A stretch of 44,533 nt of DNA from a virus, in the IMG/VR virus record IMGVR_UViG_3300014039_000008; one strand, given 5' to 3'. The position numbers and the translations under genes were made by a program. The notes under the pieces were generated by a model, which was not told the origin of the DNA, ran no database searches, and was given only the letters and a program-made list of their open reading frames with translations. This document shows positions 15,518 to 37,443 of the stretch, piece after piece (positions within the stretch are counted from its first letter, which is position 1; every line of letters begins with the position of its first letter).

Positions 15518-15751
15518 ATGCTGCAAAACATTCGGCAGCTGGCGGGAGAGCCGCCGGAGCTGACCGGGAACGCCGCGGCTGACACGGCCGCGCTCAACCG
15601 CTGGCATCGCAAGCTGATGCAGGGCCTTGAGTACCTGTTTGATCAGGTCGAGACGAGCATGGACGCGATCACCGGAGACCGGGCGGCAATGGCAGAGCGC
15701 AAGATGCAGGCCGCGAAAAAGCGGCTGGAACGGGGGAGACAGGATGGGTAG
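15518..15751 (+). CDS. small hypothetical protein (77 aa)
   Basis: ATG after TAGGAGGA. Helical composition. Confidence 0.55.
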   Translation: MLQNIRQLAGEPPELTGNAAADTAALNRWHRKLMQGLEYLFDQVETSMDAITGDRAAMAERKMQAAKKRLERGRQDG

Positions 15752-17558: not shown

Positions 17559-19595
17559 ATGGACAACGAAAAAAAGACCCTGCACAAGTGGCAGGACAAG
17601 CTCGACCGCAACCTGCAGGCCTATGCCGGGGAGCTTGACAAGATGGACGCGCGCGAGGTGCAGTACAAGGGAGGCCACGCGCTGCGGCCGCTGGTCGAAA
17701 ACGGGATCGACGAGCCGACGGAAACGCCGCACGTATGGAATATCACGAGTGAAAATATCGAATCGGAGATCGACAACAGCGTGCCGACCGGGAAGGTCAC
17801 GCCGAGCCGCCAGCAGGACAACCTGCTCGGCAAGATGATCGAGGCCATGCTCCTGGATGAGCTGGACCGCCTGCCGACGGAGCGGATCAACGACCGCGCC
17901 GAGCGCACGTGCAAGGTGCAGGGCGGCGTGCTGTATCTCGTGGAGTGGGACAGCGCACAGCGGACGCACACGACGGTCGGCGAGAACAGCATCACGGTGA
18001 TGCATCCCAAGCGTTACATCCCGCAGGACGGCGTGGAGGAGCCGGAGGACATGGACTACATGTTTCTCCGCATGCCGCAGACCAAGGGCTATGTCAAGCG
18101 CCGGTATGGCGTGGACGTATCGGACGAGACCGAGGAGGACGCCAGCCTGCGCGGCGAGGAGGCCAGCACGGCAGAGGACCTCGTCACGCTGGAGACGGCA
18201 TACTACCGCAACGAGCACGGCGGCGTCGGCCGCATCGTCTGGGTGGGCGACACAGTCTGCGAGGAGCTGGAGGACTGCCAGAGCCGCCGCCTGCGCCGCT
18301 GCAAAAAGTGCGGGCAGACCGAGGCGGACAGCGCGAACTGGAAGATGGTCGGCCCGACGAAGAACGGGGAGTACCCACAGGGTCTGCCGCCGGAGCGACG
18401 AAGAAAGGACGCCTGCGCCTACTGCGGCGCGCGCAGCTGGGAGGAAACGGACGAGGAAGGCCGCTGGATGACCATTGCCGACCTGAGCGAAAAGGGGGTC
18501 AGAGAGGACGTGCTGGACCGCCTGCAGGGGCTGGCAGCGCCGGAACCGGCAGCGGCAGAGCCGGGCTTTGCGCCGGACGGGGCAGACGTGGGCGCAGCGG
18601 GTAGTTTGACGCCAGATGCAGAAAACGGCACAGAGACGATTCTGAGGCCTGAGACGATGCCTCCGTACAACACGCAGACGCAGGCCGAAACGGAATACTG
18701 GGTGCCGTACTACCGGCCGAACATCTACCCCGTCGTGCTGCAGCGGAACGTGACCGCATGGGGCACGTTTTTGGGCGAGAGCGACTGCGACAAGATCAAG
18801 GATCAGCAGAACACGGTAAACCACCTGAGCCGCAAGATGATCACACGAATCTCCAAGTGGGGCACGAAGATCGCAATGCCGGACAACCCCGGCCTGCGCA
18901 TGGACGGGCAGGATCAGGAGCTGTGGTACATGCCGCAGTCCGATCTGGCACAGGTCAAGCAGTTTGATTTTATCGGAGACCTTGAGTGGCCGTATGCGTA
19001 CCTCAATCACGTCTATGAGGAGAGCCGCCGAATCCTCGGAATCACGGACTCGTTCCAGGGCAGGACGGACACGACGGCGACGTCCGGCAAGGCCAAGGAG
19101 TTTTCCGCCGCGCAGGCGGCAGGGCGCATCGAGAGCAAGAAGATCATGAAGAAGGCTGCATGGGCCGAGATCTTCGAGCGGCTTTTCCGCAACAAGCTCG
19201 CCTACTGCGAGGAAAAGCGAAAGATGCACGGCAAGAATGAGATGGACACCGAGTGGAACTCGTGGGCATTTCTGGAGTGCGACGAGGCGGGGGAGCTTTA
19301 CTGGAACGATCAGTTTAGATTTTCCTGCGACAACGCATCCGGGCTGGCGGCGAACCGCGAGGCCATGTGGCAGGAGATCACGCAGCACCTGCAGAGCGGA
19401 GCCTACGGCAACCCGAGCGAGCCGCAGACGCTGATCCGCTATTGGTCGCAGATGGAGATGCAGAATTACCCCGGCGCGGGAACGATCAAGAAGCTGCTCG
19501 AGGAGCAGGCTGCGCAGCAGCAGGCACAGGCCATGGCCATGCAGTCGCAGCAGGCCATGCAGCAGCAGATGGGCATGCCGCAGGGCATGCAGTAA
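17559..19595 (+). CDS. portal protein with an inserted CxxC...CxxC zinc-ribbon-like segment (678 aa)
   Basis: Size, position and Q/M-rich C-terminus fit a portal. CKKC at 18299-18310 and CAYC at 18414-18425. Confidence 0.7.
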   Translation: MDNEKKTLHKWQDKLDRNLQAYAGELDKMDAREVQYKGGHALRPLVENGIDEPTETPHVWNITSENIESEIDNSVPTGKVTPSRQQDNLLGKMIEAMLLDELDRLPTERINDRAERTCKVQGGVLYLVEWDSAQRTHTTVGENSITVMHPKRYIPQDGVEEPEDMDYMFLRMPQTKGYVKRRYGVDVSDETEEDASLRGEEASTAEDLVTLETAYYRNEHGGVGRIVWVGDTVCEELEDCQSRRLRRCKKCGQTEADSANWKMVGPTKNGEYPQGLPPERRRKDACAYCGARSWEETDEEGRWMTIADLSEKGVREDVLDRLQGLAAPEPAAAEPGFAPDGADVGAAGSLTPDAENGTETILRPETMPPYNTQTQAETEYWVPYYRPNIYPVVLQRNVTAWGTFLGESDCDKIKDQQNTVNHLSRKMITRISKWGTKIAMPDNPGLRMDGQDQELWYMPQSDLAQVKQFDFIGDLEWPYAYLNHVYEESRRILGITDSFQGRTDTTATSGKAKEFSAAQAAGRIESKKIMKKAAWAEIFERLFRNKLAYCEEKRKMHGKNEMDTEWNSWAFLECDEAGELYWNDQFRFSCDNASGLAANREAMWQEITQHLQSGAYGNPSEPQTLIRYWSQMEMQNYPGAGTIKKLLEEQAAQQQAQAMAMQSQQAMQQQMGMPQGMQ

Positions 19596-19604: not shown

Positions 19605-20852
19605 ATGCAGTACGGATACAACAAGGACACGGACTATAAAAAGCTGATGGATGACGCGGCCTCGAAGGGCAACTATGCACAGGCCGCGATCTACGAGCAG
19701 ATGAGAAACGAGAAGATCGCTGGCGAGGGCCTGAACCAGTGGGCGCAGACCAACCAGTACGCCAATTACTTGCAGGGAGCCGGGGCAAACACCGGCTGGA
19801 AAAACCCCTATCAGGAGGAGCTGGACGCCGCGATCAAGCGCCTGCAGGAGAGCAGTGGAGGGGCCTACAAGTGGGACCCCGAGAACGACACGGCCATGCA
19901 GGAATACAGCAAGACTTACCTGCGCGAGGGAGACCGGACGATGCGCGACACGCTGGGCGCCTATGCCAAGCAGACGGGCGGCCTTGCCTCCACGCAGGCC
20001 ATTGCGGCGGCCAGTCAGGCGGCCGACAACTACAAGGCGCAGCTGGCAGATAAGGTCCCCGAGCTGGAGCAGCAGGCCTACAACCGCTGGTACAACGAGC
20101 AGCAGACGGCCAGGCAGGATCAGTACAATTACCTCTCGGCCCTGATGAATGCGGGCAGCGCCGCGCAGAGCGACTACAGCCTGCGCATCAACGAGGCGCT
20201 CAACCGCTGGCAGCAGCTCGGCTATGCGGACGATCAGGTATCGAGCGTGCTGGGCGTGGGCGTGGGTACGCCGACAACAGACCAGAGCTACCAGAACTGG
20301 CAGAAGATGCAGGCGCAGCAGGATGCCGACTGGCAGAGAGAGCAGTGGAGATACCAGCAGGAACTGGACAAGTACACCCAGAACGAGCAGCAGCGCCAGA
20401 ACGCCTACAACCTCGCCATGACGATGCTGCAGCTGGGGCAGATGCCGAGCGCGGAGATGCTGACGCAGGCCGGGATCAGCGGCGAGGACGCGCAGCGCAT
20501 CCTCGCGGGCGTGCAGGCGCAGAACAGCGGGTACAGCGGCGGCTCCGGCGGAAGCTCCGGCGGAGGCTCGTACAGTTCCGGAAGCGGGAGCGGGACGGCC
20601 AGCGGGAGCGATACCGGGACAACGGGAGGATCTGATGGGAATACGCCGACGATCACAGACAAGAGCCAGCTCAGCGCGCTGGGGAAGCAGTATTACCGGG
20701 ACATTGTCAGCTCGTCGAGATATCCGCGCAGCGCAGAAGACCAATACGCGGCGATGGAGTCGATCTTTAACCGGATCACGCAGGACTATAACGCCGGGCA
20801 TTTGACGCTGGCGGAGAAAAACTATCTCGCCTCACTTTGGGGCGTGAATTGA
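19605..20852 (+). CDS. Q/N/Y-rich protein with a Ser/Gly linker; putative internal or ejection protein (415 aa)
   Basis: Follows the portal gene. Contains SGYSGGSGGSSGGGSYSSGSGSGTASGSDTG. Confidence 0.6.
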   Translation: MQYGYNKDTDYKKLMDDAASKGNYAQAAIYEQMRNEKIAGEGLNQWAQTNQYANYLQGAGANTGWKNPYQEELDAAIKRLQESSGGAYKWDPENDTAMQEYSKTYLREGDRTMRDTLGAYAKQTGGLASTQAIAAASQAADNYKAQLADKVPELEQQAYNRWYNEQQTARQDQYNYLSALMNAGSAAQSDYSLRINEALNRWQQLGYADDQVSSVLGVGVGTPTTDQSYQNWQKMQAQQDADWQREQWRYQQELDKYTQNEQQRQNAYNLAMTMLQLGQMPSAEMLTQAGISGEDAQRILAGVQAQNSGYSGGSGGSSGGGSYSSGSGSGTASGSDTGTTGGSDGNTPTITDKSQLSALGKQYYRDIVSSSRYPRSAEDQYAAMESIFNRITQDYNAGHLTLAEKNYLASLWGVN

Positions 20853-20862
20853 GGAGGAGCCT

Positions 20863-23800
20863 ATGCCAAGGGACGCAATGGCCGAATGGCTGGCGAAGCG
20901 GAATGCAGAGAAAGCTGCGCAGCGCGCGACACCGGAGCACGGGGCCGTGCGTCAGGCGCAGATCAAAGTTGACCAGATTTTAGAGCAGGCAAAGAAAACA
21001 GTAACGGAGCTGCCGGGCGTAAAGGCAGGGAAAACGGCGAAATCCTCCACACCGGTACGGCAGGAGGAGGGGCGTGACGCGATGGCCGAATGGCTTGCGG
21101 CGCGCAAAGAGTCCAAAGTGCAGCAGATCGCCGAGCAGGGCATGTACACCGTGCGGAACGCCAAAACGCTGGGCGTGGCCGTGGCGAACACCCGCGCCGA
21201 GTACCAGAAGGCACACAAGAAAGCGGCGCGGCATGTGGCGGTCAACACCACGGCACCACTGGCGATGGCGGAAGCTGCGCGGTATCAGGCAAAATTTCTG
21301 AGCGGCCGCAGCGTCGACAAAGTGCAGCGGGAGTATGACACCACGCGGGAGCGCGCGGAGGAATACCGCCAGAAGGCCCTGCGCCTGCGGGAGACCGGCG
21401 ACGCGCAGCGGGAGGCCAGCAGCACCGCCGCGATCGGGAAGGATCGCGAGGATGAGACAAGATTCGGCTCCTCTCTGACGCGGTCCGCCGACCAGTGGGA
21501 CAAGCTCGCGCAGGAGGAGAGCAGCAAGGCGCTCGAGCTTGCGCGGGAGCTGGGATATGCCAAGGTGTATCAAGTCCAGGAACTGGAAGAGAACGCTGCA
21601 ATGGACCCGCAGTTTGCCCAAAAGGCACAGGCCAGACAGGACATCCTTGCGCTGGGAGCGGAGGAGAGCAGAGCAAGCCAGAGCAAGGCAAACGTCATCT
21701 ATGGAGAGATCAACGGGAGCGAGTACTATGTGACGGAAGACCCGGCGACCGAAAAGATGACGGAAACAGAGAGGCGCACTTTTACGTACCTCTACAACAC
21801 CAAGGGGGCAGCGGCGGCCGAGGAATACTACAACATGCTCAACGACACGCTCGAGCTTCGCCGCGGTGAAGACATCGCAGCCGGCATGGGCGGGACGGCC
21901 AAGAAGACGCTGTTTTCCCTCGGGATGGGCGTGCGGCGCTTTGGACGCGGTATCGAACAATTGTTCAATGATGAGCAGCTGCCGCTCTATGGTGAGGACT
22001 ACGCCGAAAACATCATCAACGCCAGCGCGAGCCACGGGGAGAGGATCCTCTACAGCGCGGCAAACAGCATCGGCAACATGCTGCCGATGGTCGCGATCTC
22101 TGCGGCAACGCAGGGCATCGGCGGCGCAGTCGGCCTGAGCGCGGAGGCGGCGCAGGCGGCGGGCAAGGCTGCCGGCGTGGCCAGCATGTTTGCCGGGGCA
22201 AAAGGCAACGCCTACACCGAGGCCATGCAGCAGGGCATGACCAAGGCGCAGGCGTCGACCTATTCGACGCTCGTCGGCGCGAGCGAGGCAGGGCTGGAAT
22301 ATCTCATCGGTGGTATCAGCCAATTCAGCATGGGCAGCGGCATCGGCGACTTCGTGCAGGAGGCGATCTCCGGGCTGGGCCGAGGCTATGCGCGCGTGGC
22401 CTTCCGCTTTGCGGGAAGCCTGATCGGCGGCTCGATCGACGAGATCATCGAGGAAAACACGCAGAACTATCTGGAGCCGCTATTTATCAATTACGTCACA
22501 GGCAAAGAGGCGGAAATGCCGGGCTGGGACGAATTCATCGAAACGACGCTCTCCACGCTCATCACAACGGGCGTGATGGAGAGCCGCAATTCCTTCGTCG
22601 AGGCGAAGCAGAACATCGCATTCACCCCGTTTGAAGCGCAGCTGGAATGGGTGTCCGCCGCGAAGAATGTGTTTGCCGAAGGGACGGACGTTGCGGAGTT
22701 TGCGGACGTGCTGGAGAGCCGCCTGCAGGCCGGAGACCCGATGAGCTACAAGGAGTTCCGAGAGGGCATCCGCGCCCTCGGCGTGGATGAAAAGACCATG
22801 GACCGGATCGCGAAAGGCAAGCTGACGGTCGATGAGGTCTTGACGTCCGCGGAGAACGGCGATAAAATCAGCCTGAAAGAGTGGCAGGCCGAGCAGAATA
22901 GCACGGCGCAGCAGGAACAGAGCCAGACGCAGCGGGCCGAAACGGTGCAGACGGAGAACGACAATATCGAGACCGCCATGACCGCAGCAGAGCAGGAAGC
23001 CGACCGGCTGATCGCCGAATGGAACCGCGGCGAGAACAGCAGTTATGAGCTGGGGCAGCAGGCGCAGCGCGTGATGCAGCAGCTCGAAGAAGAAGTGCGC
23101 GAGGGAACTGCGACGGATCCCGGCAGCTACATAAACCGACAGCTTCAGCTGCAGGAGATCGTGCGCTCTGCGCCGGAGGCGAGCACTGCACAGCAGGCCA
23201 CTCAAAACACCACAGAAAGGATCGACAACAATGGCAGAACGGAAATTCTTAATGACAGCGAGGAACGGAATGCAGGTCTGGGTGCCGGAGAGCAAGCTGG
23301 AGCAGTGGCAGAAGGCGCAGGAGGACCAGTCGCCGGAGGCGCAGGAACGCAGACGCAAAACGGCCGAGCGGATCTTAGCGGCGGTCGAGAGGCTGTCAGC
23401 GCAAGGGAAATCGGAGTAAAGGGCGGCACAACCGAGAAAAACATCCACGTCGTCATCCCGGCCGAGATCGACACGACGCAGGCGGCAGACGCTGCGATCG
23501 TCGAAAAAATGAACCGCATCGTCACGGAAGCGGCTGCAAAGGGGCAGGATGTCACGTTCGTCTCCGGCGCGCTCACAGTCGAGTCCGGAGGCCGGACCGT
23601 GCGCGTGGAAGGTGTTCGCCAGACCGGCGACAACGGCAGGACGCAGATCTTCCTGCAGGTAGACGGCCGCCGGGACATGGAGCGAATTTACCGCCACGAG
23701 GATTTCCACGACGCGGTGGAGGCGCAGCCGGGGCTGCTGCAGCGCCTTGCCGACCGGCTCATGCAGGAGTATGGCCGCGAGGAAATGCTGCGCATGGCGA

Positions 23801-26800
23801 TCGACTATGCAGAAGCATACGACGGCATTTACGGCGAGTTTACCGAGGACATGACGGAGGAGCAGGAAAATGAGCTTGCGATCCGGTACATGGAGGAAGT
23901 TTTCGCGGATGCCTACGCTGGCATCCGCCGAGGGCAGCGCCGTATCCGCTCCGCGCAGAAGACGCTGGAGGCCAGCGGGGAGATCGAGACGCTCCGGGCA
24001 AGAGGCCAGACGGCACAGAATGCGCAGGAGGAGCAGAGCGGGAAACTGTCTATTGCAGATGGACTGCTCGACAAACTTCGGCGCGTAGCAGAAAACAGGT
24101 ATCGAGGAGCTGACGAAATCTATATCGGGGAAACATCGGACTTTTTGACGCGGGAGATCGGTGTCGACGCGGCAAAGGTCACAATGCCTGCGAGCAAAGC
24201 GTACGCCGCAATGGTGACTGCAGAGCAGGCAAAGGTGGATAACCGATACGACAAGAACATAAATTACCACGGGCTCGGGGCAGAGGGGATGCTCGAAATC
24301 CTCGAAAAATCGGAAAACCCTGTTGCGGCATTCGTTTCAAAACCTGGAGAAAAAGGAAGTCGGCTGAATCGACTGGTGCTCGTAACCGACCAAGAGATCA
24401 ACGGCGGGAACGCGGTGGTCGTAGAGGAAATTGAGGCCCAAGGTAGACTGAAGGGGAAAAAACTAAAGGTAAATAAAGTCATAACCGCATATGAACGTGA
24501 GCGTGCGGCGCAAGATGTGCAGGACGCACAAATAGACGGCAGGCTGCTATACCTAGACAAAAAAAGAAGCCAGAGCTTAAATGCTGGGAGGCCGGGGTCC
24601 AATTCCCCGGTGGCCATGCAAAGCTCTGACTTCCAGACCAATATACAAAACTTTCTCGCAGATGTCAAGTGGGAATCCGGGGAATACGATAAAAAAGTTT
24701 CTGGAAGCGGACCGGTCGAGAGCGATATCGCAGCAGCGTTCAGAAAATCTTTAGAGAAGAAGACAAGCTTCTCAGTATCGGGCGACCAGAATGGGCAGGA
24801 CGGGCGGGGAAAACAGAGATTTTCGCTGTCTGAGCCGGTGGAGCGCGCTGGGAACCTGATTGCGGAGCACAACCTGACGCAGGAGAAGCTGGAGAAGGCG
24901 CTGGAGATCGGCGCGTTTCCGTCGCCGTCCATCGCTATCGTGCAGGCCGAGCAGGGGCATACAAACTACGGAGACTATTCCGTCGTGTTCCCAGCGTCGA
25001 CGATCGACCCCGAGGCGGACAGCCGGAACCGCGTATATGGCGCGGACGCATGGACGCCGACCTCGTCCAACGCGACCGTGGAGTACCGTGTGGATGCGGA
25101 TGCAAAGCGGGCGTTCGAGCGCAGCATCCGGGACCTGTCGGGGCAGGTAGCAGACGGGATTTTCCGTGGAGACAGTACGCTCGGCAAGGCCGGGATCGAA
25201 GAGGAAACGACCAAGACAAGCCGGGAAATCGCGGAGCAGATCGCGCAGTATCCGGAGGTCAAGGCGGCTTATCTTGCGGATAAAGGCGAGAATATCAGTC
25301 CTGTCTACAAGGACAGAGAGTACGACAATATTGGGAATGCGGCGCTGCAGCGGTATACGGACAACGTCGGCGCACAGGACCTTGCATGGATCATTGCGCA
25401 GATGGACATGGGGGATGCGCAAAGCGTGGCACAGGCAGAGCTGCAGCGCGTGCGGCAGGCGATCGGGGAGGAATATGCAGAGCGGTTTGCAAGGATCCTC
25501 GACCGGAGGCCGGAACGCAAGGCGGAGCGCGTCAGTGAGTACGCAGAAAACAAAATGTACAGCAGCATGCGGGCAGAGGACTTTATCAGGCATGCGTGGG
25601 AGATGGTACAGGACGGAGGCCGGAACAGCGGCGAAGCGGACAAAATGGCCATGCAGGACGAGCTTGACCGAAAAGCGCCGGTGCAGGACGTGGCGGCGTG
25701 GGCAGAAAAGCGGCTGCAGGATGTGATCGGCGAGGGCGGGATCTACAACAATGAGGATCGCTATACAAGCCGAGGCGACCGCAGGAGTTTTGACCAGACC
25801 CACTGGGAGCTGAACGCGGAGAACCTCGTCCGGGCTATGGCACAGGCGGAGGAACGCGGCGCAAACATCATGTGGTATGATGCCGGTGGCCTGCTGGCAG
25901 CGGCGACGCCGGAGTACCGGAGCATCAGCGAGATCCATGCCGACGAGGGGCGGCTGCAGACGTTGGAGCAGGAGGCCTACGAGGGGAAAGTGATGAAGCT
26001 GCAGCAAAGCCTTGACAACGTGGTCGAGCGCATCCTGCAGGAGACAAAGCACAAAGCATATGGGTATCAGGATGAGAGCCAGCTTATCACGGAAGCGCTG
26101 ATCAAGACCGCACAGGGCGGCGACAGCCTGCAAAGCATCCGCGAGGGGATGGCAGCGGAAGAATACGACATTGACCGTGCGACGGCAATGCGGGTTCAGG
26201 AGCTGTTTCAGCAGGCGAAGGAGATTCCTACCTCGTACTTCGAGGCCAAGCCGCAGCGGGTAGTAAGCTTTGATGAGGCGGTCGCGCTGTTGGCCCCGGA
26301 AAGCGCTCCGGCGAGTCTGATGGCAAGAGCAGAGGACGCGGGCCTGCGCGTGATCCGGTACACGGACGACGCAGACAGGATCCGCGTTGCAAACGAACTG
26401 CCGGGCGTGAAATTCTCCGTGCAGGAGGAGCAGGATGCTGGGGAGAGCCAGAAGCAAGACACGCAGAAAGACCTCGGAGAGATGAACCGGCAGGTGCAGG
26501 GGGCGGAGGCTGCGATGCGCAGCGACGCACTCAAGGCACAGGCGGACGCCGAGCTGCAGGAGTACCTGAAAAAGGGAAAGAGCGAGCTGGCACAGTCCAT
26601 CAGCAAGATGAGCGACGCAGCGCTGAAAAAGCAGACCGAGCGGGTCAAACAGGCCATGACGGCAGAGTCGGAGGGCCTGCGCATCAACGAGGCCGCCGAG
26701 GCTGTGACAGAGGGCGTGCAGAAGTACGCGGAGAGCCGCAACCAGCGCCTCGGCGATATGCTGCAGATGATCAAGGCCGAGCAGAACAAGCGCGCAGCGG

Positions 26801-29800
26801 AAAAGCGAGAGGCCGAAAAGCAGCGACGTGCAGAGGCCCGGAAGACGCCGGAAGCGAAGCTACAGCGCCAGATCGACAAGCTGCAGAAGCAGATTGACAT
26901 TGAGCGTGCGGCGCTCCGGCAGGCGAAGCAGGGCGGGACGCTCACCAGCGAGATGGCCGAGCAGAGCGAGGAACGCATCACGGGCCTCCGGCAGGAGATC
27001 CTCGATTACAAAAACGAGCTGCAGGAGAAGAAGACCGCCGCCCGCGAAGAGAAAAAGCGCCAGCAGGATCAGGCAGCCAAAGAGGCGATCCTGAAGGAGA
27101 AGCCCCGTCAGGCCACGAGAGACCTGACGAACGCGCTGATCGAGAGCTTTAACGTCCCGGAGGCAAACCGCACCCAAGCGACGATCCAGATTCGCGAGCT
27201 TGCGGAGCAGGCCTATCAGGAGGGGCAGAAAGGCCCCATCACGAACGAGCTGCGAAACAAGATGCTCGATACGCTGATCGAGCTGGGGACGGAGCGGGAG
27301 ATGCTCGACAACCGGGAAAGCGAGATCAGCCAGCGGCTGCGCGAAAAGTGGATCCAGGTGCCGGACGAGGTACGGACCGCGTTCGGCGAGGAGTGGGCCG
27401 ACATCAAGGAAAGCGCGTATGACAGCGGCATCTATTTTACCTACAAGGACGGATACCGCAGCATCCAGAGCTGGACGGCCGAACTGCAGAAGGAATTTGG
27501 CCAGATGTTTGATACGACCCGCAGCCCGCAGCAGCAGCTGCGCGACATCGTGAATCTGGCGTCGGAAGGCTACGGGAAGCAGATGACCATCGGCGACATG
27601 CTCCGGCAGAATGCGGACGACTACAGCTGGAGCATGCGCGAGAAGGTCGAGGAGCTCGGGAAGGTGCTGGACGACCAGCTGCAGCGGTTTGGTGAAAAGG
27701 CAAACATCGAGGTCAAGCTCGCGGCCCGGTCGGCGAAGTCCCTGCAGGCGCAGCAGCAGTATTTTGAGAACCGGCTGCGCAGCCGGACGGAGCAGCAGAT
27801 GGAGAGCCTCGCAAGAGAGAAGCTCCTCAAGAGCGCAAAGCAGCTGCGCCGCATGGCAAACAAGTCGTCTGCGGAGCAGCGGGCCGCGATCCAGAAAGTC
27901 ATCGGGAACATCGATCTTGTGGCAAGGAGCATCACGCCGGACGGGATCGAAAACCTGCAGGAGCTTGCACTGAGCTACCGGCAAGCAATGGAAGCCATGG
28001 GCGAGAATTTTATCCGCGACAAGGACGTGGAGGACCGGCTGGCAAGGCTGGGCAAAAAGCGCATCGCCGAAATGGATGACATGGACGAGGTGCGGCAGCT
28101 TGCGCAGGACATCACGGCCGTGGCCACACAGATCCGGAATCAGAACCAGATGCTCGCGACTGTGCGCCGCGAAACGGTATCAGAAATGGCCGAGAACGTC
28201 CGCAAGGAAGTGAAGGCCGCGAAGGGCAGCAACGCAGGAAAGGCAAGAGATTTCGTGCTGATGCAGACCGACGCGAAGCGTTTCTTCCTCGAACTCGGCG
28301 GTTGGAAGGAAGACGGCGCGACAGCCGAGCTGCTGCACGGGCTGGAGCGAGGCGAGGAGAAGCGCCGCCTGTACGAAATGCGAGCGCAGGGCCTCTTTAA
28401 CGGGTTCCTCGCGGACAAGGCCAACAAGAAATGGGTCGAGAGCGCGACCGGGAAGGACGCACAGTGGATCACGGTCGACACGCCGCGCGGCGCGTCCGTC
28501 ATCAAGGACGGAACGGCGAGCGCGATCAGCGAGCTGACCATGACCCCGATGATGCGCGTCTCCCTGATCATGCACAGCAAAAACGAGGACAACCTGCGGC
28601 ACATCGCCGAGGGCGGCATGCGCGTGCCGAACCGGGCGCTCTACAAGAAGGGCAACATCTCGGAGGCGTATGCGCGCGGAGACGTTGTGACACTGACGCC
28701 GCAGGCCGTGCGGGACATCGTGCGCGGGGCAACGGCGCAGGAGATCCAATTTGCCGCGATCCTGAGCAAGTATTTTGACGGGCAGGCCAAGAATGCGATT
28801 AACGAGGTATCCATGGTCATGGATGGCTATGAGAAGGCCATGGTCAAGAACTATTTCCCGATCGAGTCCGACCGCGCGTTTACCGTGCAGGACAATGACC
28901 AGGTGCGCAACGACATTTCGCTGACCGGGCTCGGGTTTTTGAAACAGCGTACCGGGAAGGGTGCGAACCCCGTGCTGCTGCAGGATGCCTCGCAGACGTT
29001 CCAGAGGAGCGTGGAATCCGTCAGCAAATACTACGGATTAGCACTGCCGATCCGCGACCTGAACGCCATCATGAACAGCACCTACTATGAGAACGCCGGA
29101 AAGGTGCGGCTTTCGCAGACGGACAAGTTGCTCGGACGCGACCGCAGCAAGGAGGGCGGCGGCGCGATCCGCACGCAGAGCGCAGAAAGCGTGCGGAATG
29201 TGATCGCCGGGAAGTGGGGCAAAAGCTCCATCAACTACATCGAAAAGCTCGTCGGAGACCTCCAGCGCAGCGGGAAGGACATGGACGCGTTCTCCGGGTT
29301 CTTCGGATGGCTGCGCGGGCAGTATGCGAGCGCGGTGATCTCTTTCAACCCGAGCTCGATGCTCAAGCAGTGGGGCAGCTATGCAACGGCCATGGCGTAT
29401 CTCAGCCCCGGCGATCTCGCAGCGGGCCTGCTGCGGGGCATGAAGGGCAAGGTCAGCACAGACACGCTCGGACAGTACAGCTCCGTCTACTGGTACCGCA
29501 ATCAGGGCAACGCGACGCAGGAACTGCACGACCTGACCACGAACGAGGCACTTGTGACAAAGCTGCCGCTTGGCTACAACTGGGCGCAGGCGATGGACAG
29601 CTTTATCACGCGCCGCCTGATGCTGGCATGTGAGCGAAACGTGAGCCGCACAACAGGCCTGACGCCGGGCACGTCCGAGGAGATCAACAGCGGGACGGAT
29701 GCCTACTGGACGAAGGTCGCGACGCTGTTCAACAAAGTTGTGCTGGACACGCAGTCCAACTCGAGCATTCTGGAGCGTGCGGCCGTAGCACGAGCGAATC

Positions 29801-31923
29801 CGAACAACATCAGCCGATTTATGACGATGTTCCGCGCGGACGCTTTCCAGAGTTTCAACCTGCTCCGTGAGGGGCAAGGCAAGTACCAGAGTGCGCGAGA
29901 GGCCTACCTGCAGAACAAGACGGCTGAGAACCGCAGAGCGATGATCGCAGCGCGGAAGCAGCTGGCAAGGTCCGGCGCGGCTGTGATCGCATCGCAGTTT
30001 GTGTCCGCCTCCATCAGCGTCATGATCAATGCGCTGCGGCGGAGAGATGAGCTGTGGGACGAGGACGGCCTGAACTGGGGCGAGGTCATGAAGCAGCTGG
30101 GGCTCGGCATGGTAGAGGGACTCGCGGGCATCTCCATCGCCGGTGAGGAGCTTGTGGGTCTTGTGGAGTCCATCGCCTTTGATGAGACGTGGTACGGGCC
30201 TGACGTCAACGCACTGCAGCTGCTGACCGACACGGCCGAGAGCGCGATCAGCGCGGCGAAGATCCTCAAAAACGGCAAATGGGAGCTTGCGCCCGGTGCG
30301 CTGAAGGATCTGGCGCTGGAGGCATCCACGGTCATGGGCCTGCCGCTCAAAAACGTCGAAAAGTATGTGCAGGTCCTGCCGAGATGGGTCGCGCCGGAGC
30401 TCATGGCAGAGTACGACAACATCTGGGACGAGGTCGACCGGAACGCGCTCTCCAAGTCGTCCGTGCTGGACATCAAGGCGGACATCGGCGTGCTGCTCGA
30501 CAACCGCACCGATGACATGAGCGACGAGGACAAGGAGGAACTGACAAGGCTCTACCTTGCAGGAGGGACCGGAGCGCTCCCGGCAGCCGTGCCGAACTCC
30601 GTCAAGTACAACAACGACAGCGGAGAGGAAGTGACGGTACAGCTCGACTACAGCCAGAAGCAGACGTACAAGAAGGAGTGGAGCAAGATCGTCTCCGGAG
30701 CGATCGGGGCACTGCTGAAGTCTGACCTCTACAACGAGGCGGACGACAAGACCAAGACAAAGATGCTCAATAACCTGTATACCTATGCAAACGGGCTTTC
30801 TGCCGAGAAGGTCGTGCCGGAGAAGGCGGCTGACGGGTGGATCGACGACGCCAGAACGATCAGCGGAGAGGGCGTCAAGATCGCGGATTATATCCAGTGG
30901 CACACGATGCTCAGCGAGATGGATTCCGACGACGCGAGCGGTACCGGCAGGACGGGCCTGAAAAATGCCCGCGCGATGGAGCTGGCGAACGAAAAGGGAT
31001 GGACGTGGGCCGTCCCGTCGGGTGCACCGGACGAGCTCAAATGGATGGAGGACGATACAGAGCAGACACTGCAGCTCACGGATGCGCAGAAGAAGCAGTA
31101 CCGCAAGACATGGACCGGGATCGTATACGGGAGCGTCGGTGACCTGATGCAGTCCGACGAGTACCAGAGCGGGAGCGAGAAGGAGCGCGGCGCGCTCATC
31201 CAGAAGCTGACGTCCTATGCATCCGCGCTGGCGGCCTATGAGATCGAGCCGAAAAAGGAGCCGGACACATGGATCCTCGGCGGGCAGCAGGCCGTGAAAG
31301 ACGGCGTGCCGCTGGACGAGTACATCGTTTTCCGCGCGCTCTACAGCGAACTGGACAGCATCAACGAGGACGGCGACGAGGAGAGCGGTCTGAAAAACAA
31401 GCGGACGCTGGATCTCATCGAGTCCATGGGATGGAGCGACCAGGCAGAGCAGAGCGCCTATATCAACACCGTGGCCTCGGAGAGCAAGGCCGCTGAGGCG
31501 GAGGCACTGCAAAAAGCCGGAATGACGTGGGAGCAGGCGAATGATGTGCTGGCCGTGCCGGGTACGGGTGTTGCAAAGAAAGTGGCTGTCACGGCGACAA
31601 ACGCGAGCGAGGCGGCCAAGGCGAAGGTCCTTGCGAGCTACGACAAGAGCGAGAAGCAGAAGACTGCAAAGCTCGTCATGACCGGCCTGAAATACGGCAT
31701 CCCGATGCGGCGCTACACGGACGTGCTGCAGAACGCAGACGCGGACGGCAGCGGCGGCGTCTCGCAGGAGGAGGCCGGGAAGTACATCGCGACGCTGGGC
31801 CTCAGCGTACAGGAGGCGGCGTACCTCTGGCAGATGGTCACGAACGGGAAGGAAGGCAAGAAAAACCCGTTCTCCAGCTATTTCGGTTCGGAGTTTTACA
31901 GCGCCGCAGGAGCGTTTGACTGA
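20863..31923 (+). CDS. giant multidomain protein (3,686 aa), polyvalent or ejection-protein-like
   Basis: Uninterrupted 11,061-nt ORF with a GAGGAGG RBS. HEDFH at aa 945-949. Hydrophobic G/A/S-rich region, long coiled coil and tandem C-terminal modules. Confidence 0.85.
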   Translation: MPRDAMAEWLAKRNAEKAAQRATPEHGAVRQAQIKVDQILEQAKKTVTELPGVKAGKTAKSSTPVRQEEGRDAMAEWLAARKESKVQQIAEQGMYTVRNAKTLGVAVANTRAEYQKAHKKAARHVAVNTTAPLAMAEAARYQAKFLSGRSVDKVQREYDTTRERAEEYRQKALRLRETGDAQREASSTAAIGKDREDETRFGSSLTRSADQWDKLAQEESSKALELARELGYAKVYQVQELEENAAMDPQFAQKAQARQDILALGAEESRASQSKANVIYGEINGSEYYVTEDPATEKMTETERRTFTYLYNTKGAAAAEEYYNMLNDTLELRRGEDIAAGMGGTAKKTLFSLGMGVRRFGRGIEQLFNDEQLPLYGEDYAENIINASASHGERILYSAANSIGNMLPMVAISAATQGIGGAVGLSAEAAQAAGKAAGVASMFAGAKGNAYTEAMQQGMTKAQASTYSTLVGASEAGLEYLIGGISQFSMGSGIGDFVQEAISGLGRGYARVAFRFAGSLIGGSIDEIIEENTQNYLEPLFINYVTGKEAEMPGWDEFIETTLSTLITTGVMESRNSFVEAKQNIAFTPFEAQLEWVSAAKNVFAEGTDVAEFADVLESRLQAGDPMSYKEFREGIRALGVDEKTMDRIAKGKLTVDEVLTSAENGDKISLKEWQAEQNSTAQQEQSQTQRAETVQTENDNIETAMTAAEQEADRLIAEWNRGENSSYELGQQAQRVMQQLEEEVREGTATDPGSYINRQLQLQEIVRSAPEASTAQQATQNTTERIDNNGRTEILNDSEERNAGLGAGEQAGAVAEGAGGPVAGGAGTQTQNGRADLSGGREAVSAREIGVKGGTTEKNIHVVIPAEIDTTQAADAAIVEKMNRIVTEAAAKGQDVTFVSGALTVESGGRTVRVEGVRQTGDNGRTQIFLQVDGRRDMERIYRHEDFHDAVEAQPGLLQRLADRLMQEYGREEMLRMAIDYAEAYDGIYGEFTEDMTEEQENELAIRYMEEVFADAYAGIRRGQRRIRSAQKTLEASGEIETLRARGQTAQNAQEEQSGKLSIADGLLDKLRRVAENRYRGADEIYIGETSDFLTREIGVDAAKVTMPASKAYAAMVTAEQAKVDNRYDKNINYHGLGAEGMLEILEKSENPVAAFVSKPGEKGSRLNRLVLVTDQEINGGNAVVVEEIEAQGRLKGKKLKVNKVITAYERERAAQDVQDAQIDGRLLYLDKKRSQSLNAGRPGSNSPVAMQSSDFQTNIQNFLADVKWESGEYDKKVSGSGPVESDIAAAFRKSLEKKTSFSVSGDQNGQDGRGKQRFSLSEPVERAGNLIAEHNLTQEKLEKALEIGAFPSPSIAIVQAEQGHTNYGDYSVVFPASTIDPEADSRNRVYGADAWTPTSSNATVEYRVDADAKRAFERSIRDLSGQVADGIFRGDSTLGKAGIEEETTKTSREIAEQIAQYPEVKAAYLADKGENISPVYKDREYDNIGNAALQRYTDNVGAQDLAWIIAQMDMGDAQSVAQAELQRVRQAIGEEYAERFARILDRRPERKAERVSEYAENKMYSSMRAEDFIRHAWEMVQDGGRNSGEADKMAMQDELDRKAPVQDVAAWAEKRLQDVIGEGGIYNNEDRYTSRGDRRSFDQTHWELNAENLVRAMAQAEERGANIMWYDAGGLLAAATPEYRSISEIHADEGRLQTLEQEAYEGKVMKLQQSLDNVVERILQETKHKAYGYQDESQLITEALIKTAQGGDSLQSIREGMAAEEYDIDRATAMRVQELFQQAKEIPTSYFEAKPQRVVSFDEAVALLAPESAPASLMARAEDAGLRVIRYTDDADRIRVANELPGVKFSVQEEQDAGESQKQDTQKDLGEMNRQVQGAEAAMRSDALKAQADAELQEYLKKGKSELAQSISKMSDAALKKQTERVKQAMTAESEGLRINEAAEAVTEGVQKYAESRNQRLGDMLQMIKAEQNKRAAEKREAEKQRRAEARKTPEAKLQRQIDKLQKQIDIERAALRQAKQGGTLTSEMAEQSEERITGLRQEILDYKNELQEKKTAAREEKKRQQDQAAKEAILKEKPRQATRDLTNALIESFNVPEANRTQATIQIRELAEQAYQEGQKGPITNELRNKMLDTLIELGTEREMLDNRESEISQRLREKWIQVPDEVRTAFGEEWADIKESAYDSGIYFTYKDGYRSIQSWTAELQKEFGQMFDTTRSPQQQLRDIVNLASEGYGKQMTIGDMLRQNADDYSWSMREKVEELGKVLDDQLQRFGEKANIEVKLAARSAKSLQAQQQYFENRLRSRTEQQMESLAREKLLKSAKQLRRMANKSSAEQRAAIQKVIGNIDLVARSITPDGIENLQELALSYRQAMEAMGENFIRDKDVEDRLARLGKKRIAEMDDMDEVRQLAQDITAVATQIRNQNQMLATVRRETVSEMAENVRKEVKAAKGSNAGKARDFVLMQTDAKRFFLELGGWKEDGATAELLHGLERGEEKRRLYEMRAQGLFNGFLADKANKKWVESATGKDAQWITVDTPRGASVIKDGTASAISELTMTPMMRVSLIMHSKNEDNLRHIAEGGMRVPNRALYKKGNISEAYARGDVVTLTPQAVRDIVRGATAQEIQFAAILSKYFDGQAKNAINEVSMVMDGYEKAMVKNYFPIESDRAFTVQDNDQVRNDISLTGLGFLKQRTGKGANPVLLQDASQTFQRSVESVSKYYGLALPIRDLNAIMNSTYYENAGKVRLSQTDKLLGRDRSKEGGGAIRTQSAESVRNVIAGKWGKSSINYIEKLVGDLQRSGKDMDAFSGFFGWLRGQYASAVISFNPSSMLKQWGSYATAMAYLSPGDLAAGLLRGMKGKVSTDTLGQYSSVYWYRNQGNATQELHDLTTNEALVTKLPLGYNWAQAMDSFITRRLMLACERNVSRTTGLTPGTSEEINSGTDAYWTKVATLFNKVVLDTQSNSSILERAAVARANPNNISRFMTMFRADAFQSFNLLREGQGKYQSAREAYLQNKTAENRRAMIAARKQLARSGAAVIASQFVSASISVMINALRRRDELWDEDGLNWGEVMKQLGLGMVEGLAGISIAGEELVGLVESIAFDETWYGPDVNALQLLTDTAESAISAAKILKNGKWELAPGALKDLALEASTVMGLPLKNVEKYVQVLPRWVAPELMAEYDNIWDEVDRNALSKSSVLDIKADIGVLLDNRTDDMSDEDKEELTRLYLAGGTGALPAAVPNSVKYNNDSGEEVTVQLDYSQKQTYKKEWSKIVSGAIGALLKSDLYNEADDKTKTKMLNNLYTYANGLSAEKVVPEKAADGWIDDARTISGEGVKIADYIQWHTMLSEMDSDDASGTGRTGLKNARAMELANEKGWTWAVPSGAPDELKWMEDDTEQTLQLTDAQKKQYRKTWTGIVYGSVGDLMQSDEYQSGSEKERGALIQKLTSYASALAAYEIEPKKEPDTWILGGQQAVKDGVPLDEYIVFRALYSELDSINEDGDEESGLKNKRTLDLIESMGWSDQAEQSAYINTVASESKAAEAEALQKAGMTWEQANDVLAVPGTGVAKKVAVTATNASEAAKAKVLASYDKSEKQKTAKLVMTGLKYGIPMRRYTDVLQNADADGSGGVSQEEAGKYIATLGLSVQEAAYLWQMVTNGKEGKKNPFSSYFGSEFYSAAGAFD
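23231..23419 (+). CDS. nested ORF (62 codons) in the +1 frame inside the giant gene
   Basis: ATG 9 nt after GAAAGGA. Hand-counted GC3 is 49/62 (79%) in this frame versus 27/63 (43%) in the giant frame over the same span. The product is K/E/Q-rich and protein-like. Confidence 0.4.
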   Translation: MAERKFLMTARNGMQVWVPESKLEQWQKAQEDQSPEAQERRRKTAERILAAVERLSAQGKSE

Positions 31924-31943
31924 AAACAAAATACCGCACAGCG

Positions 31944-31972
31944 GGGGAGGGCGAAAGCCCTCTCCCATTTTT
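31944..31972 (+). terminator. intrinsic terminator after the giant gene
   Basis: 9-bp G/C stem with one bulge, GAAA loop, followed by ATTTTTA. Confidence 0.7.
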
Positions 31973-35152: not shown

Positions 35153-36307
35153 TCACGTGTTAGTCGGAGGCGAGAGCTGGACGGCGTCCAGGATGGTGAT
35201 CGCGCGCTCCTCCTCTCGGGGGTAAAGGTGGGCATAGGTATTCCATGTGATTTGGACGTTGGAGTGGCCGAGGCGGCGCGCGACCTCCTGTATGTTGATG
35301 CCATTGTTAATGAGCAGGGAGGCGTGGGAGTGACGGTAAGCATGGAGGCGTATATTGGGGAGCCCAGCAGAGGCAGAATAGGAAAAATTGCGCTCTCGAA
35401 GGGCGGTGAAGCCGAGATGGGCAGGGCCACCGCAGACGAGGAAGTCCGGCGAGAAGCCGGGCATACCGCGCTGGAAGCGGAGGTGTGCCTGCAGTTCCTC
35501 GAAAAGGGGAACCGGGATGCCAATATCGCGGACAGAGGACTCCGTTTTTACCGGGCCCTCCCCAAACCGATCGGAGTAAGTGCGGCGGATGCGGATCAGG
35601 CGGGCCGGGAGATCGATATCCGTCCAGTGCAGGGCGAGGACTTCGCCGGGCCGCATGCCGGTATAAAATGCGACGACGAAAAACATCATGTATTGCCGCT
35701 CTTGGATGGGATTTTTTGCGGCGGAAACGGCGGCTGCTGCCGATGTGTAAAAACGCTGAAATTGCTCTGCGGTATAGAATTGGAAATCGTGCTGCGGGGC
35801 GGACGGCATGGATTTGCGCTGACGGCGGAGCCGCCCGAAGGGGGATACTGTGATGATGCGGAGTTCGACGGCTCGGGCAAACATGGACTTTACGCTTTTG
35901 TACACTTCGGAGATCGTACCGGGTGCGAGGCCCTTGCCGTGGAGAGACGAGACCCAATCGGAGACGTGGCGCGGGGTTACAGCACTCATACGGAGCGGCC
36001 CGAAAAATGGGGCGGCGTGGGCGCGAAGGCGGGACTCGAGCGCGGTGAGGGACGACGCACGGACCTCGGTGGACCGGTACGTGATAAACTGCGGGATAAA
36101 CTCGGCGACGGTGAGGCGGTCATCGGCGGTGGGGGCGGGGGATTTGGCCTCGGCGCTGAGCTGGCGCTCCATATCGGCGGCCTCGGCCTTGCCGTAGACG
36201 ATACGCTCGATGCGGCGGTAGGCCCCGGTATCGGGGTCGGTATAATTGACGCGGACGCGATAGCCCTGCAGGCCGTCGCGCTTTTTTTGGATCTTTGTGA
36301 CAGGCAT
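35153..36307 (-). CDS. int: tyrosine recombinase / phage integrase (384 aa)
   Basis: Start MPVTKIQKK 8 nt after AGGAG. Catalytic signature present: YTGMRPGE, HAYRHSHA, LGHSNVQITWNTYAHL. Confidence 0.9.
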   Translation of the reverse strand: MPVTKIQKKRDGLQGYRVRVNYTDPDTGAYRRIERIVYGKAEAADMERQLSAEAKSPAPTADDRLTVAEFIPQFITYRSTEVRASSLTALESRLRAHAAPFFGPLRMSAVTPRHVSDWVSSLHGKGLAPGTISEVYKSVKSMFARAVELRIITVSPFGRLRRQRKSMPSAPQHDFQFYTAEQFQRFYTSAAAAVSAAKNPIQERQYMMFFVVAFYTGMRPGEVLALHWTDIDLPARLIRIRRTYSDRFGEGPVKTESSVRDIGIPVPLFEELQAHLRFQRGMPGFSPDFLVCGGPAHLGFTALRERNFSYSASAGLPNIRLHAYRHSHASLLINNGINIQEVARRLGHSNVQITWNTYAHLYPREEERAITILDAVQLSPPTNT

Positions 36308-36330
36308 AGCAGACTCTCCTTGGGGCGGGC

Positions 36331-36744
36331 TCAGCCGCGAAGCCAGCCGATATTTGGGCTGAGAGCGTCGATGATCAGCAAAAAGACAACGACGGCGACG
36401 AGGCTGGTGGCGATGATGGCAAGCAGCCGCATCCAGCGCGCGCGAAAAGCTGCGAGGCGCTCGAGGAATGCGATGCGGGCGTCCTTTTCCGCGAGCAGCG
36501 CCTCGCAGGTAAGGGCAGCGGGTGTGTCCTCCGGCGGCGGGAACAGGTCGGGGAGTACATCGGACATCGGGACCTCGGCTGCGGCGACGAGGTCGATGAC
36601 CGTCTGGAGGCCGGGGTTTTCGGTCCCGCCGGAGAGGATGCGGGAGATCGTGCTGATGGGGACGCCGGAGCGATCCGCCCACGCGGCGAGGGTGAGGCCG
36701 GACTTTTGCTTGACGGCATTGAGCCGGTCACAGATTTGTGTCAT
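36331..36744 (-). CDS. XRE-family HTH regulator with a C-terminal transmembrane anchor (137 aa)
   Basis: ATG 36744 after AGGAGG. HTH is LTLAAWADRSGVPISTISRILSG. C-terminal TM is LLAIIATSLVAVVVFLLII. Confidence 0.75.
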   Translation of the reverse strand: MTQICDRLNAVKQKSGLTLAAWADRSGVPISTISRILSGGTENPGLQTVIDLVAAAEVPMSDVLPDLFPPPEDTPAALTCEALLAEKDARIAFLERLAAFRARWMRLLAIIATSLVAVVVFLLIIDALSPNIGWLRG

Positions 36745-36872
36745 GGTGTCGCCTCCTGACGATTTCGTTTTCGGGTGCGGATTTTTGCAAAAAGCGTGCG
36801 GGGTTCCCGTTTTTGGCCGTGGTTTCCCGCGGCGGGGGATGGTACGATGCGGGTGCAAAGGGGGTGCGCCGG

Positions 36873-37088
36873 ATGGAGCGATGGATCAAGTACCGGTTTG
36901 TAAGGGAGTACCGGCGGCTGCGGCCGGACGGGCGGGCGCGCGTGGAGCGCGCCAGAGACGAATTGAGGCTGGCCGCCTGTGGGGTACGGCCAGCCTCAGA
37001 AGAGGAGATCGTGCGGGAGTTTTTACGGCTGCCGCCGGAGGGGCAGCGGGAGGTGCTGGACGTGCTGGAGATGTGTGTGCGTAGTTGA
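36873..37088 (+). CDS. small hypothetical protein (71 aa)
   Basis: High GC3 in this frame by eye. No strong RBS. Confidence 0.45.
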   Translation: MERWIKYRFVREYRRLRPDGRARVERARDELRLAACGVRPASEEEIVREFLRLPPEGQREVLDVLEMCVRS

Positions 37089-37349: not shown

Positions 37350-37443
37350 TATAGGCAGGGCCGCAGGGAAGTAAGCGTTTATCGATCCTTTCTTTTTCTT
37401 TTCAGTGCATAAGCAAAAATCTCCTTTCTTTTTGCAAAACAGG

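Follow-up and report, generated by a model that had tools for sequence, protein, structure and literature searches.

A giant phage protein, very probably of the polyvalent class, with conserved ends and an exchangeable middle

What kind of protein does a phage make when it gives a quarter of its genome to one gene? The question is raised by IMG/VR virus record IMGVR_UViG_3300014039_000008, a stretch of 44,533 nucleotides (nt) that was analysed whole and is called the window here; it looks like the ~44-kb genome of a temperate gut phage, and a single open reading frame (ORF) in it, hereafter the giant, encodes 3,686 amino acids (aa). An initial annotation, made from the letters alone, took the giant for a candidate injected member of the polyvalent proteins of Iyer, Aravind and colleagues. 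This reading is supported by two predicted RNase domains that score above their Pfam cut-offs (MuF_C and PBECR5), by the place of the gene in the late module, by polyvalent domains in the middles of homologues and by structural matches in BFVD, and we have little doubt that the giant belongs to the polyvalent class. As for the proposed chain of polyvalent domains, its BECR-fold part was found, while no ADP-ribosyltransferase (ART) domain and no LPD domain above threshold was detected in the window protein with Pfam. The explanation that accounts best for the whole, and that we hold to be likely, is a polyvalent carrier packed in the virion and injected with its effector cassettes.

The gene and its signals are as follows.

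20863-31923, plus strand: giant ORF with an ATG start, 3,686 aa, no internal stops, 408 kDa, pI 5.1, 24.8% of the window
20851-20857, plus strand: Shine-Dalgarno sequence GAGGAGG, 5 nt from the ATG of the giant ORF
31943-31966, plus strand: intrinsic-terminator-like hairpin with a 10-bp stem (8 GC pairs), then a T-run

The hairpin is the best-ranked terminator-like site of the region, and the uninterrupted frame of 3,686 codons (11,061 nt), its ribosome-binding site and its terminator are all as first described; the ten features listed in the initial annotation were each examined, and each is present. Because GC-rich genomes yield long spurious frames, relatives were examined for the integrity of the frame. 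A 3,125-aa orthologue is intact on seven of eight IMG/VR contigs, and the eighth contig ends inside a frame that is still open; identity across the C-core is 98-99% for these contigs, six of which have a length (43.7-44.7 kb) that suggests complete genomes. L018, a locus from an Oscillospiraceae metagenome-assembled genome (MAG), holds an intact 3,643-aa orthologue (42% identity) with its own ribosome-binding site, AAAGGAGG. Judged by these sequences, the giant frame has been conserved under selection; it is genuine and neither a chance open frame nor an artefact.

The only exception to the intact frame is the Logan contig L001 (~90% identical), in which the orthologue is called as three genes of 1,239, 102 and 1,771 aa, and this call is what speaks for the alternative that adjacent genes were fused into one ORF by an artefact of assembly or annotation. 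The breaks are two -1 frameshifts at A/G homopolymer runs (L001 9639-9657 and ~9965), due either to assembly error or to a pseudogenised copy, and two other Logan contigs are in frame across the same place. A split gene was rejected on account of these homopolymers and of the frames of L002, L003 and L009-L016, which are open over the stretch covered. With the frames of the IMG/VR contigs and of L018 also standing against it, we find the artefact, weighed as one alternative with the tape-measure protein considered below, scarcely credible. Divergence along the gene is uneven: against the IMG/VR relatives, identity is 81-84% over the N-terminal 1,310 aa and ~97% over the C-terminal 1,817 aa (window 20863-24792 and 26470-31920), the extreme N-terminus differs (MPRDAMAEWLA... 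in the window; MARIIGKEYLARQKR or MPRNLAQEYLNRRKR in the IMG/VR relatives), and blastn finds no match for the L001 DNA around window 20595-21219. Such a pattern points to recombination or to faster evolution of the N-terminal half.

Which domains, then, make the giant polyvalent? Two modules of the BECR fold are recognised in its middle.

24250-24573, plus strand: MuF_C domain, aa 1130-1237 (Pfam PF18819, 35.6-39.4 bits, cut-off 27.6, E 1e-8)
24793-26481, plus strand: PBECR5 cassette, aa 1311-1873, an exact 1,689-nt (563-codon) in-frame indel
24814-25392, plus strand: PBECR5 Pfam match, aa 1318-1510 (PF18814, E 8e-54, 183-189 bits [183.5-189.3], cut-off 25)

A scan with hidden Markov models for enzymatic polyvalent domains, as the initial annotation had advised, placed both above the Pfam cut-offs; the two families derive from the domain set of Iyer et al. 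(2017). MuF-C is counted among the PBECR (BECR-fold RNase-like) domains, and PBECR fusions in virion-gene contexts have been predicted to be packaged and injected (PMC5512222). MuF_C and PBECR5 of the giant are both predicted BECR-fold RNases, and one chain holds at least two unrelated polyvalent-network domains in these two, plus the zincin-like domain described below. Compared with 14 homologous domains from 13 proteins, the PBECR5 domain of the giant keeps all positions conserved at 90% or more (F1320, H1336-N1337, P1355-S1356, D1395 and T1398), and the kept H1336 with S1356/T1398 would fit the His plus Ser/Thr active site described by Iyer. We consider it somewhat more likely than not that PBECR5 is an active RNase. 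LPD14 (PF18827) was also tried as a candidate domain in the giant; its match is sub-threshold (15-16.5 bits, cut-off 27; E 0.009-0.026) and only the window copy matches among the 13 N-module homologues, and membership was rejected.

The PBECR5 cassette is missing from L001-L003 and L009-L017, in which the junction reads through in frame, and these cassette-less relatives are ~91% identical to the window phage (~91-99% outside the cassette). It is bounded by ...TSFSVS on the left and ...VKFSVQ on the right. Among PHROGs the giant has a single match, to the function-unknown family phrog_22978 (aa 1308-2334), and because this family spans the cassette plus the following helical region, the indel may be either a gain here or a loss in the relatives. 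The low-GC inserted module that had been noticed at 24240-24780 is also present, as a patch at ~24,050-24,800 (GC 0.50-0.52, against ~0.61 elsewhere) that overlaps MuF_C and the following linker; it is common to relatives at ~90% identity, which suggests that the MuF_C module came from a lower-GC donor and was acquired before these phages diverged. The best sigma-70-like match of the region (11/12, minus strand, 24668-24640) lies inside this patch and is probably a by-product of its AT-richness.

Short elements of the form (K/R/S)-(F/L)-S-(L/V/I) occur at every module boundary (24040-24051, 24763-24777, 24814-24828 and 26407-26421, at aa 1061, 1302, 1319 and 1850): KLSIA, where the homologue P0015 diverges into LPD23 (GKFSLAG), SFSVS at the left junction of the cassette, RFSLS where PBECR5 starts, and KFSVQ at the right end of the cassette. 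In L018, KFSVEEE stands between MuF_C and the C-module. Such an element could be a linker, a processing site or a recombination anchor. The strict pattern xFS(L/V) matches three times against 0.67+/-0.8 expected in shuffles, a modest enrichment, and it is partly accounted for by the conserved element with which PBECR5 and LPD23 cassettes open (F1320 being conserved at 90% or more); given this, a cleavage site is not claimed.

Upstream of these modules lies a third candidate enzyme.

23440-23982, plus strand: zincin-like domain, aa ~860-1040, with HEDFH at nt 23695-23709 and a downstream EEvFADAYAG block

HEDFH (aa 945-949), picked out initially as a zinc-peptidase-type motif, is the sole HExxH of the protein. 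H945, E946, H949, Y982, E1012 and D1016 are invariant in 23 homologues (an alignment at 23-42% identity), so that HExxH and a third metal ligand are conserved family-wide, and these residues read as a complete gluzincin-like signature. L018, at 29% identity here, keeps IYRHE[DR]FH and the downstream YMEEVFADAYAG block, and ~30 further homologues of the domain came from the exhaustive HMMER search. A word-indexed search with aa 690-1130 was empty and missed even the 81%-identical P0015, which marks a limitation of the tool and not absence. The suggested peptidase thus stands as a conserved signature; its expected family does not, as MPTase-PolyVal (PF18818) matched neither the segment (E<=10) nor any of the 23 homologous domains (E<=1). 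The zincin-like domain has no Pfam family or PDB sequence match; one homologous domain matches the zincin-like eCIS_core weakly (E 0.004). We read the HEDFH region as a conserved, uncatalogued zincin-like domain, and we would put even chances on its being an active peptidase.

How are these enzymatic modules held together? Conserved parts lie on both sides of them, those on the N-terminal side being the following.

21280-22872, plus strand: conserved N-module, aa ~140-670, 44-61% identical to ~75 proteins of ~2,225 aa
21745-22617, plus strand: N-module core, aa ~295-585, including the G/A-rich uncharged aa 395-427

Ahead of the N-module, the motif RDAMAEWLA is duplicated as reported (aa 3-11 and 71-79), and the duplication stretches weakly to ~31 aa. 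The G/A/S-rich hydrophobic stretches noted at about aa 340-530 are likewise there (G+A+S make up 47% of aa 401-500, and aa 395-427 are an uncharged run of 33 residues), and in this they resemble tape-measure proteins; weak matches of the low-confidence N-terminal model to tape-measure proteins in BFVD (E 0.1-2.5, non-significant) go the same way. The hint of a tape measure found no support beyond this: tape-measure matches are absent in Pfam and PHROGs, the genes upstream are a portal and a 415-aa gene and not tail-tube or chaperone genes, and a length difference of 563 aa between near-identical phages would mean a change of ~80 nm in tail length. Neither the N-module nor its core has a Pfam or PDB match.

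The C-terminal side begins where the cassette ends.

26482-28182, plus strand: charged amphipathic-helical, coiled-coil-like region, aa ~1874-2440 (by composition and periodicity)
28300-30552, plus strand: conserved C-module core, aa ~2480-3230, largely of helices plus a small alpha/beta subdomain, and including the uncharged aa 3037-3058
30583-31440, plus strand: two tandem ~142-aa modules, aa 3241-3382 and 3383-3526 (34% identity, E 1e-30)
31441-31920, plus strand: C-terminal tail, aa 3527-3686, with the family-wide ...YLWQ...K..NP ending in the consensus of 13 giants
31735-31770, plus strand: EF-hand-like calcium-binding loop DADGSGGVSQEE, aa 3625-3636, a sequence reading within the tail

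The K/E/Q/R coiled coil proposed at about aa 1855-2080 fits both charge (K/R/E/D/Q make up 41-52% across aa 1801-2100) and periodicity (a 3.5-residue hydrophobic period with z = 2-5 above shuffles at aa ~1843-2400, and ~0 in control regions), and the region is longer than was proposed; these properties fit a coiled coil or amphipathic helices. The C-module has 29 invariant columns across 13 homologues, and an AF2 model of aa 2440-3539 found no PDB fold match (best E 0.6). In BFVD the same model gave 44 matches at E<1e-3 (best 8.6e-25), the best four with template-modelling (TM) scores of 0.41-0.47 over ~1,000 columns. Most matches that bear a name are later (C-terminal) pieces of giant phage proteins, called 'PolyVal ADP-ribosyltransferase', 'Nuclease', 'LPD-containing' or 'MuF C-terminal domain-containing'; the cultured Flavobacterium podophage elemoC_14-1A contributes a 'Structural protein'. 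An AF2 model of aa 130-1310 matches the first fragments of the same giants that the C-module model matches; it was used for no fold conclusion, and its BFVD matches show only that the same proteins match both ends. The two tandem C-terminal modules, placed from the start at about aa 3240-3526, are as described, and they have remote kinship to the C-terminus of a ~2,225-aa family (hhalign probability 90%). With regard to the EF-hand-like loop, the annotation 'EF-hand domain-containing protein' is borne by several of the BFVD giants that match in structure, and a D...G...Q.E pattern stands in the consensus of the 13 giants.

Is this arrangement peculiar to one phage? In an exhaustive phmmer search, aa 140-1100 were compared with 1.84 billion representatives (clusters at 50% identity), and at E<=1e-3 the N-terminal part matched no fewer than 1,193 representative clusters (761 at E<=1e-10), most of which cover aa ~295-585. 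Among the 149 best matches, 102 have a length of 2,000 aa or more and 48 one of 3,000 aa or more, and in the 142 that have a long N-core match this core starts at a median residue of ~297. Thirteen distant giants (2,933-4,132 aa, 16-39% identical to the first of them) align end to end, and they have in common the N-module, the invariant HExxH, the C-module motifs (...LRHIxGG...NEVS...) and the ...YLWQ...K..NP tail. Their middles carry PBECR5 (3), LPD23 (3), ART-PolyVal (2), Zeta_toxin (2), LPD38, MuF_C, ResIII/SNF2/Helicase_C, LPD3 and AAA_33. P0015 is 81% identical over aa 1-1065 and then has LPD23 and LPD3 in place of MuF_C; P0010 has aa 1007-1271 (the MuF_C region) in common and then runs straight into the C-module. 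The orthologue in L018 holds LPD23 and MuF_C. With the 563-codon PBECR5 indel, the LPD23/LPD3 swap of P0015 and the LPD23 plus MuF_C of L018, the middle is mosaic. The part from aa ~1983 to 3686 is common to proteins of 1,048-2,051 aa, some of them clipped by contig ends, whose remaining parts hold PBECR1, MuF_C or ART-PolyVal. Read from these alignments, the layout is a conserved N-module, a zincin-like domain, a variable middle, a charged helical spacer, a C-module, ~140-aa repeats and a tail, and the giant is typical of this large and coherent family, whose proteins measure 2-4 kaa and have an exchangeable effector middle.

The ~2,225-aa family (P0035; L004/L005 10001-16687), with a mean column identity of 90% among 19 members, has the N-module and, remotely, the C-terminal repeat module in common with the giant, and its middle is different. 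Two NCBI assemblies have the ~2,225-aa gene as the final one of an integrated prophage that also encodes a P22-type portal and a GDSL-lipase protein of 903 aa.

The family is largely outside the databases. The whole giant found nothing at E<=1 among all PDB chains (phmmer), profile searches of the PDB with the C-module, the zincin-like domain and the N-core gave nothing meaningful, NCBIfam matches no part of the giant, no GenBank phage has a near match at the DNA level, and tblastn against GenBank phages (aa 1-3000, E<=1e-5) returned five weak partial matches. These searches also bear on the idea that the giant is a virion RNA polymerase of the N4/crAss type that transcribes early genes after injection. 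Its size is as expected (~3,500 aa), the context is late and the genome is podovirus-like, and N4-like virion RNA polymerases are themselves counted among the polyvalent proteins, carrying a fused MPTase and in some cases a PBECR domain (PMC5512222). Nevertheless an RNA polymerase Pfam domain, the DxDGD motif, a PDB sequence match and a PDB fold match of the C-module are all absent, the sole N4_RNAP_helical match (E 0.45) lies in one homologue, and the middles of the family are RNases, ARTs, kinases and helicases, not polymerases. We give this idea next to no credence.

Would such a protein enter the host? The neighbouring genes bear on this most directly.

15627-17549, plus strand: 'internal virion protein', 640 aa (phrog_511, E 4.5e-31)
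17559-19595, plus strand: portal (phrog_156, E 3e-29; weakly SU10-like)
19605-20852, plus strand: 415-aa Q-rich protein (17.8% Q+N), directly 5' of the giant
35153-36307, minus strand: tyrosine integrase, downstream of the giant

The gene order starts with a replication initiator, a collagen-like tail fibre, an Ig-domain structural protein, an amidase endolysin and an XhlA-type holin; two function-unassigned proteins, the major head protein, the large terminase, the 'internal virion protein' (phrog_511) and the portal come next, and then the 415-aa Q-rich protein, the giant, six small ORFs and the minus-strand tyrosine integrase. The order of portal and Q/N-rich protein before the giant is thus as claimed at first, the Q/N richness being moderate. 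With the head protein, large terminase, internal virion protein and portal upstream and the integrase downstream, the giant adjoins packaging and late genes, which is the context described for polyvalent proteins, and it is the final gene of the late module also in relatives L004 and L008. Tape-measure, tube and sheath genes were not found among the late ORFs scanned, the portal is SU10-like and relatives' contexts hold P22_portal or SU10_adaptor; a short-tailed phage is therefore probable. The giant gene of L018 is directly preceded, at 161-1973, by counterparts of the 640-aa protein (41% identity) and the 415-aa protein (35%) with no portal gene between these two; together with the giant they may make up a conserved set of ejection proteins comparable to N4 gp50/51/52. 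Two MAG bins place relatives in uncultured Oscillospiraceae, which are probably the host; the call is tentative because one binned contig is itself phage-sized (43.7 kb).

The lysogeny module 3' of the giant (window 35153-38000, minus strand) holds the tyrosine integrase and helix-turn-helix repressors. The lysogeny module of L002 (8943-11825) includes a 318-aa protein with an Ada_Zn_binding domain, unusual for a phage regulatory region.

A temperate phage (integrase at 35153-36307, minus strand; repressors in relatives) might also carry the giant for the benefit of the lysogen, as a polymorphic toxin of the MuF type that kills competitors and has no role in phage infection. Fusions of MuF with toxins are known from temperate Firmicutes phages. 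Toxin systems, too, contain MuF_C and BECR RNase domains (PMC5512222). Against such a toxin, the portal-binding Phage_Mu_F (PF04233) head domain that would form its N-terminus has no match in the giant, nor in the neighbours scanned (seven upstream, three downstream), the toxin-like module is in mid-protein and not C-terminal, no cassette-linked immunity gene is present, and the gene lies within the late structural operon; ~2,500 aa of conserved non-toxin scaffold would be left unexplained. We regard this account as very unlikely.

A different emphasis is placed by the proposal that the giant is mainly a structural ejectosome or conduit that bridges the thick Gram-positive envelope for DNA entry, its enzymatic inserts being dispensable passengers or aids in digesting the envelope and not anti-defence effectors; in function it would then correspond to T7 gp15/gp16, P22 gp7/gp16/gp20 or phi24B gp47. 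The probable short-tailed morphology (late ORFs scanned without tape-measure, tube or sheath genes, the SU10-like portal, P22_portal/SU10_adaptor relatives) agrees with it, and so do the conservation of the N- and C-modules beside an enzymatic middle that is variable and sometimes absent, the two long uncharged segments, and phi24B gp47, which was proposed as the same kind of protein; the trio of 640-aa protein, 415-aa protein and giant kept in L018 recalls three podovirus ejection proteins (PMC13434306). On the other hand, the BECR RNases, ART, Zeta toxin and SNF2 helicase of the middles need part of the chain in the cytoplasm, lysozyme, transglycosylase and other cell-wall hydrolase domains were not detected in the giant with Pfam, and the hydropathy is weak for true membrane spans. 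A mainly structural role is compatible with the data and overlaps the polyvalent carrier rather than excluding it; as the principal explanation we consider it unlikely.

Returning to the polyvalent carrier, late synthesis, packing in the capsid and ejection are favoured because of the gene context (the 640-aa and 415-aa neighbours) and the phi24B, N4 and Ab9 analogues, and packaging and ejection of the giant appear rather probable to us from that context and from phi24B gp47 and N4 gp50. The giant would be made late and packed in the capsid alongside the 'internal virion protein' and the 415-aa protein, and at infection it would be expelled with the DNA through the portal and short tail as a loosely linked, beads-on-a-string chain. 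The N- and C-modules would serve as a delivery chassis for capsid incorporation and passage, and the uncharged segments (aa 395-427 and 3037-3058) might engage the envelope or membrane. The zincin-like domain may process the chain or cut an envelope or host target, and the two BECR-fold modules may cut host RNA early in infection, and so blunt an RNA-based defence or shut off the host. More tentatively, it is conceivable that the conserved modules form an undescribed chassis that both builds the DNA-entry conduit of phages lacking a tail tube and injects interchangeable effectors (RNase, ART, Zeta kinase, helicase), with xFS(L/V) marking the cassette boundaries; we think this doubtful as a whole.

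Several observations weigh against the carrier. Presence in the virion and injection are proposed from gene context and analogues, and the putative chassis role of the N- and C-modules from conservation and position only; neither module has a known fold or function match in Pfam or the PDB. The models are of limited help: that of aa 130-1310 is poor (mean predicted local distance difference test [pLDDT] 44.5, with even MuF_C unresolved), and that of the C-module, built from a 13-sequence alignment, is of modest quality (mean pLDDT 69, predicted TM score 0.51). The uncharged segments aa 395-427 and 3037-3058 have Kyte-Doolittle values of 1.36 and 1.66, borderline for transmembrane spans. The zincin-like domain is outside all catalogued peptidase families against which it was matched, and RNase activity has to our knowledge never been shown for any PBECR5. 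The flanks of the cassette are collinear with the cassette-less relatives and no immunity or inhibitor gene lies alongside it, which is slightly odd for a potent RNase in the producing cell. The missing Phage_Mu_F domain and the twice-broken frame of L001 count on the same side.

Polyvalent proteins are regarded as one of the chief means that phages have of delivering ready-made enzymes against defence, and almost none has been studied experimentally; how a chain of 300-400 kDa is packed and ejected is an open question (bioRxiv 10.64898/2026.04.10.717836). The class has been known since 2017, and such giants have already been deposited as 'hypothetical' or 'polyvalent' proteins. What is new here is descriptive: a fixed chassis (>1,000 clusters) outside the domain and structure databases, the zincin-like domain and a clean cassette indel. 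The locus shows one fixed scaffold across a large family of 2-4-kaa phage proteins whose conserved parts are missing from databases, it defines a zincin-like domain with named candidate catalytic residues, and the natural in-frame gain or loss of PBECR5, in phages that are otherwise ~91-99% identical, demonstrates cassette exchange directly and gives functional work a clean pair to compare. If the chassis reading is true, cassette-plus and cassette-minus pairs (the window against its IMG/VR relatives) would offer natural isogenic tests of what each effector counters. The impact is limited in that the class is already described, the probable Oscillospiraceae host is uncultured and current views are unchanged.

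Among known systems, the ejection proteins of podoviruses (T7 gp14/15/16 and P22 gp7/16/20) are internal virion proteins of the late operon that serve in crossing the envelope and are ejected before or with the DNA. They are much smaller than the giant and no modular effector carriers, and homology to it was not detected. N4 gp50 is a beads-on-a-string chain of ~3,500 aa that is packed in the capsid and leaves it through a ~35 A channel, accompanied by two smaller ejection proteins (PMC13434306), and it offers a model for injecting a 400-kDa chain; its polymerase domain or motif was not found in the giant, and N4 is a lytic phage of ~70 kb, in contrast to the temperate 44-kb window. The 2,811-aa polyvalent protein gp47 of phi24B combines LPDs (LPD5, LPD1, LPD38) with MuF-C, is abundant in virions by mass spectrometry, is unseen in the cryo-EM map and has been proposed to be an encapsidated ejection protein (bioRxiv 10.64898/2026.04.10.717836). 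Like the giant it is a giant polyvalent protein with MuF-C from a temperate phage, phi24B being a short-tailed Stx phage; no sequence similarity was found (phi24B was not among the tblastn matches for aa 1-3000 at E<=1e-5), the LPD content differs and the host of phi24B is Gram-negative.

Closer in sequence are two unannotated 'hypothetical proteins', gp68 of Bacteroides phage BF1-TP2 (~3,633 aa) and CDS0016 of Acinetobacter phage Ab9 (2,839 aa), which have the PBECR5-type cassette region in common with the giant at 22-24% identity over ~500-600 aa, similarity being detectable by tblastn in this region only. Ahead of CDS0016, which takes up 22% of the Ab9 genome, lie two genes for internal virion proteins and one of 773 aa with an endolysin annotation. 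In kind, the giant resembles the polyvalent proteins at large (PMC5512222): it is a very large single chain of unrelated effector-type domains beside portal and terminase genes, and homologues of the window protein swap in ART-PolyVal, PBECR1, SNF2 helicase and LPD domains. The giant differs from them in that ~2,500 aa (N-module, zincin-like domain, C-module and repeats) are outside the Pfam models derived from that study, and in that its variable effectors are flanked by two conserved parts, as opposed to the free-form domain syntax described there (PMC5512222).

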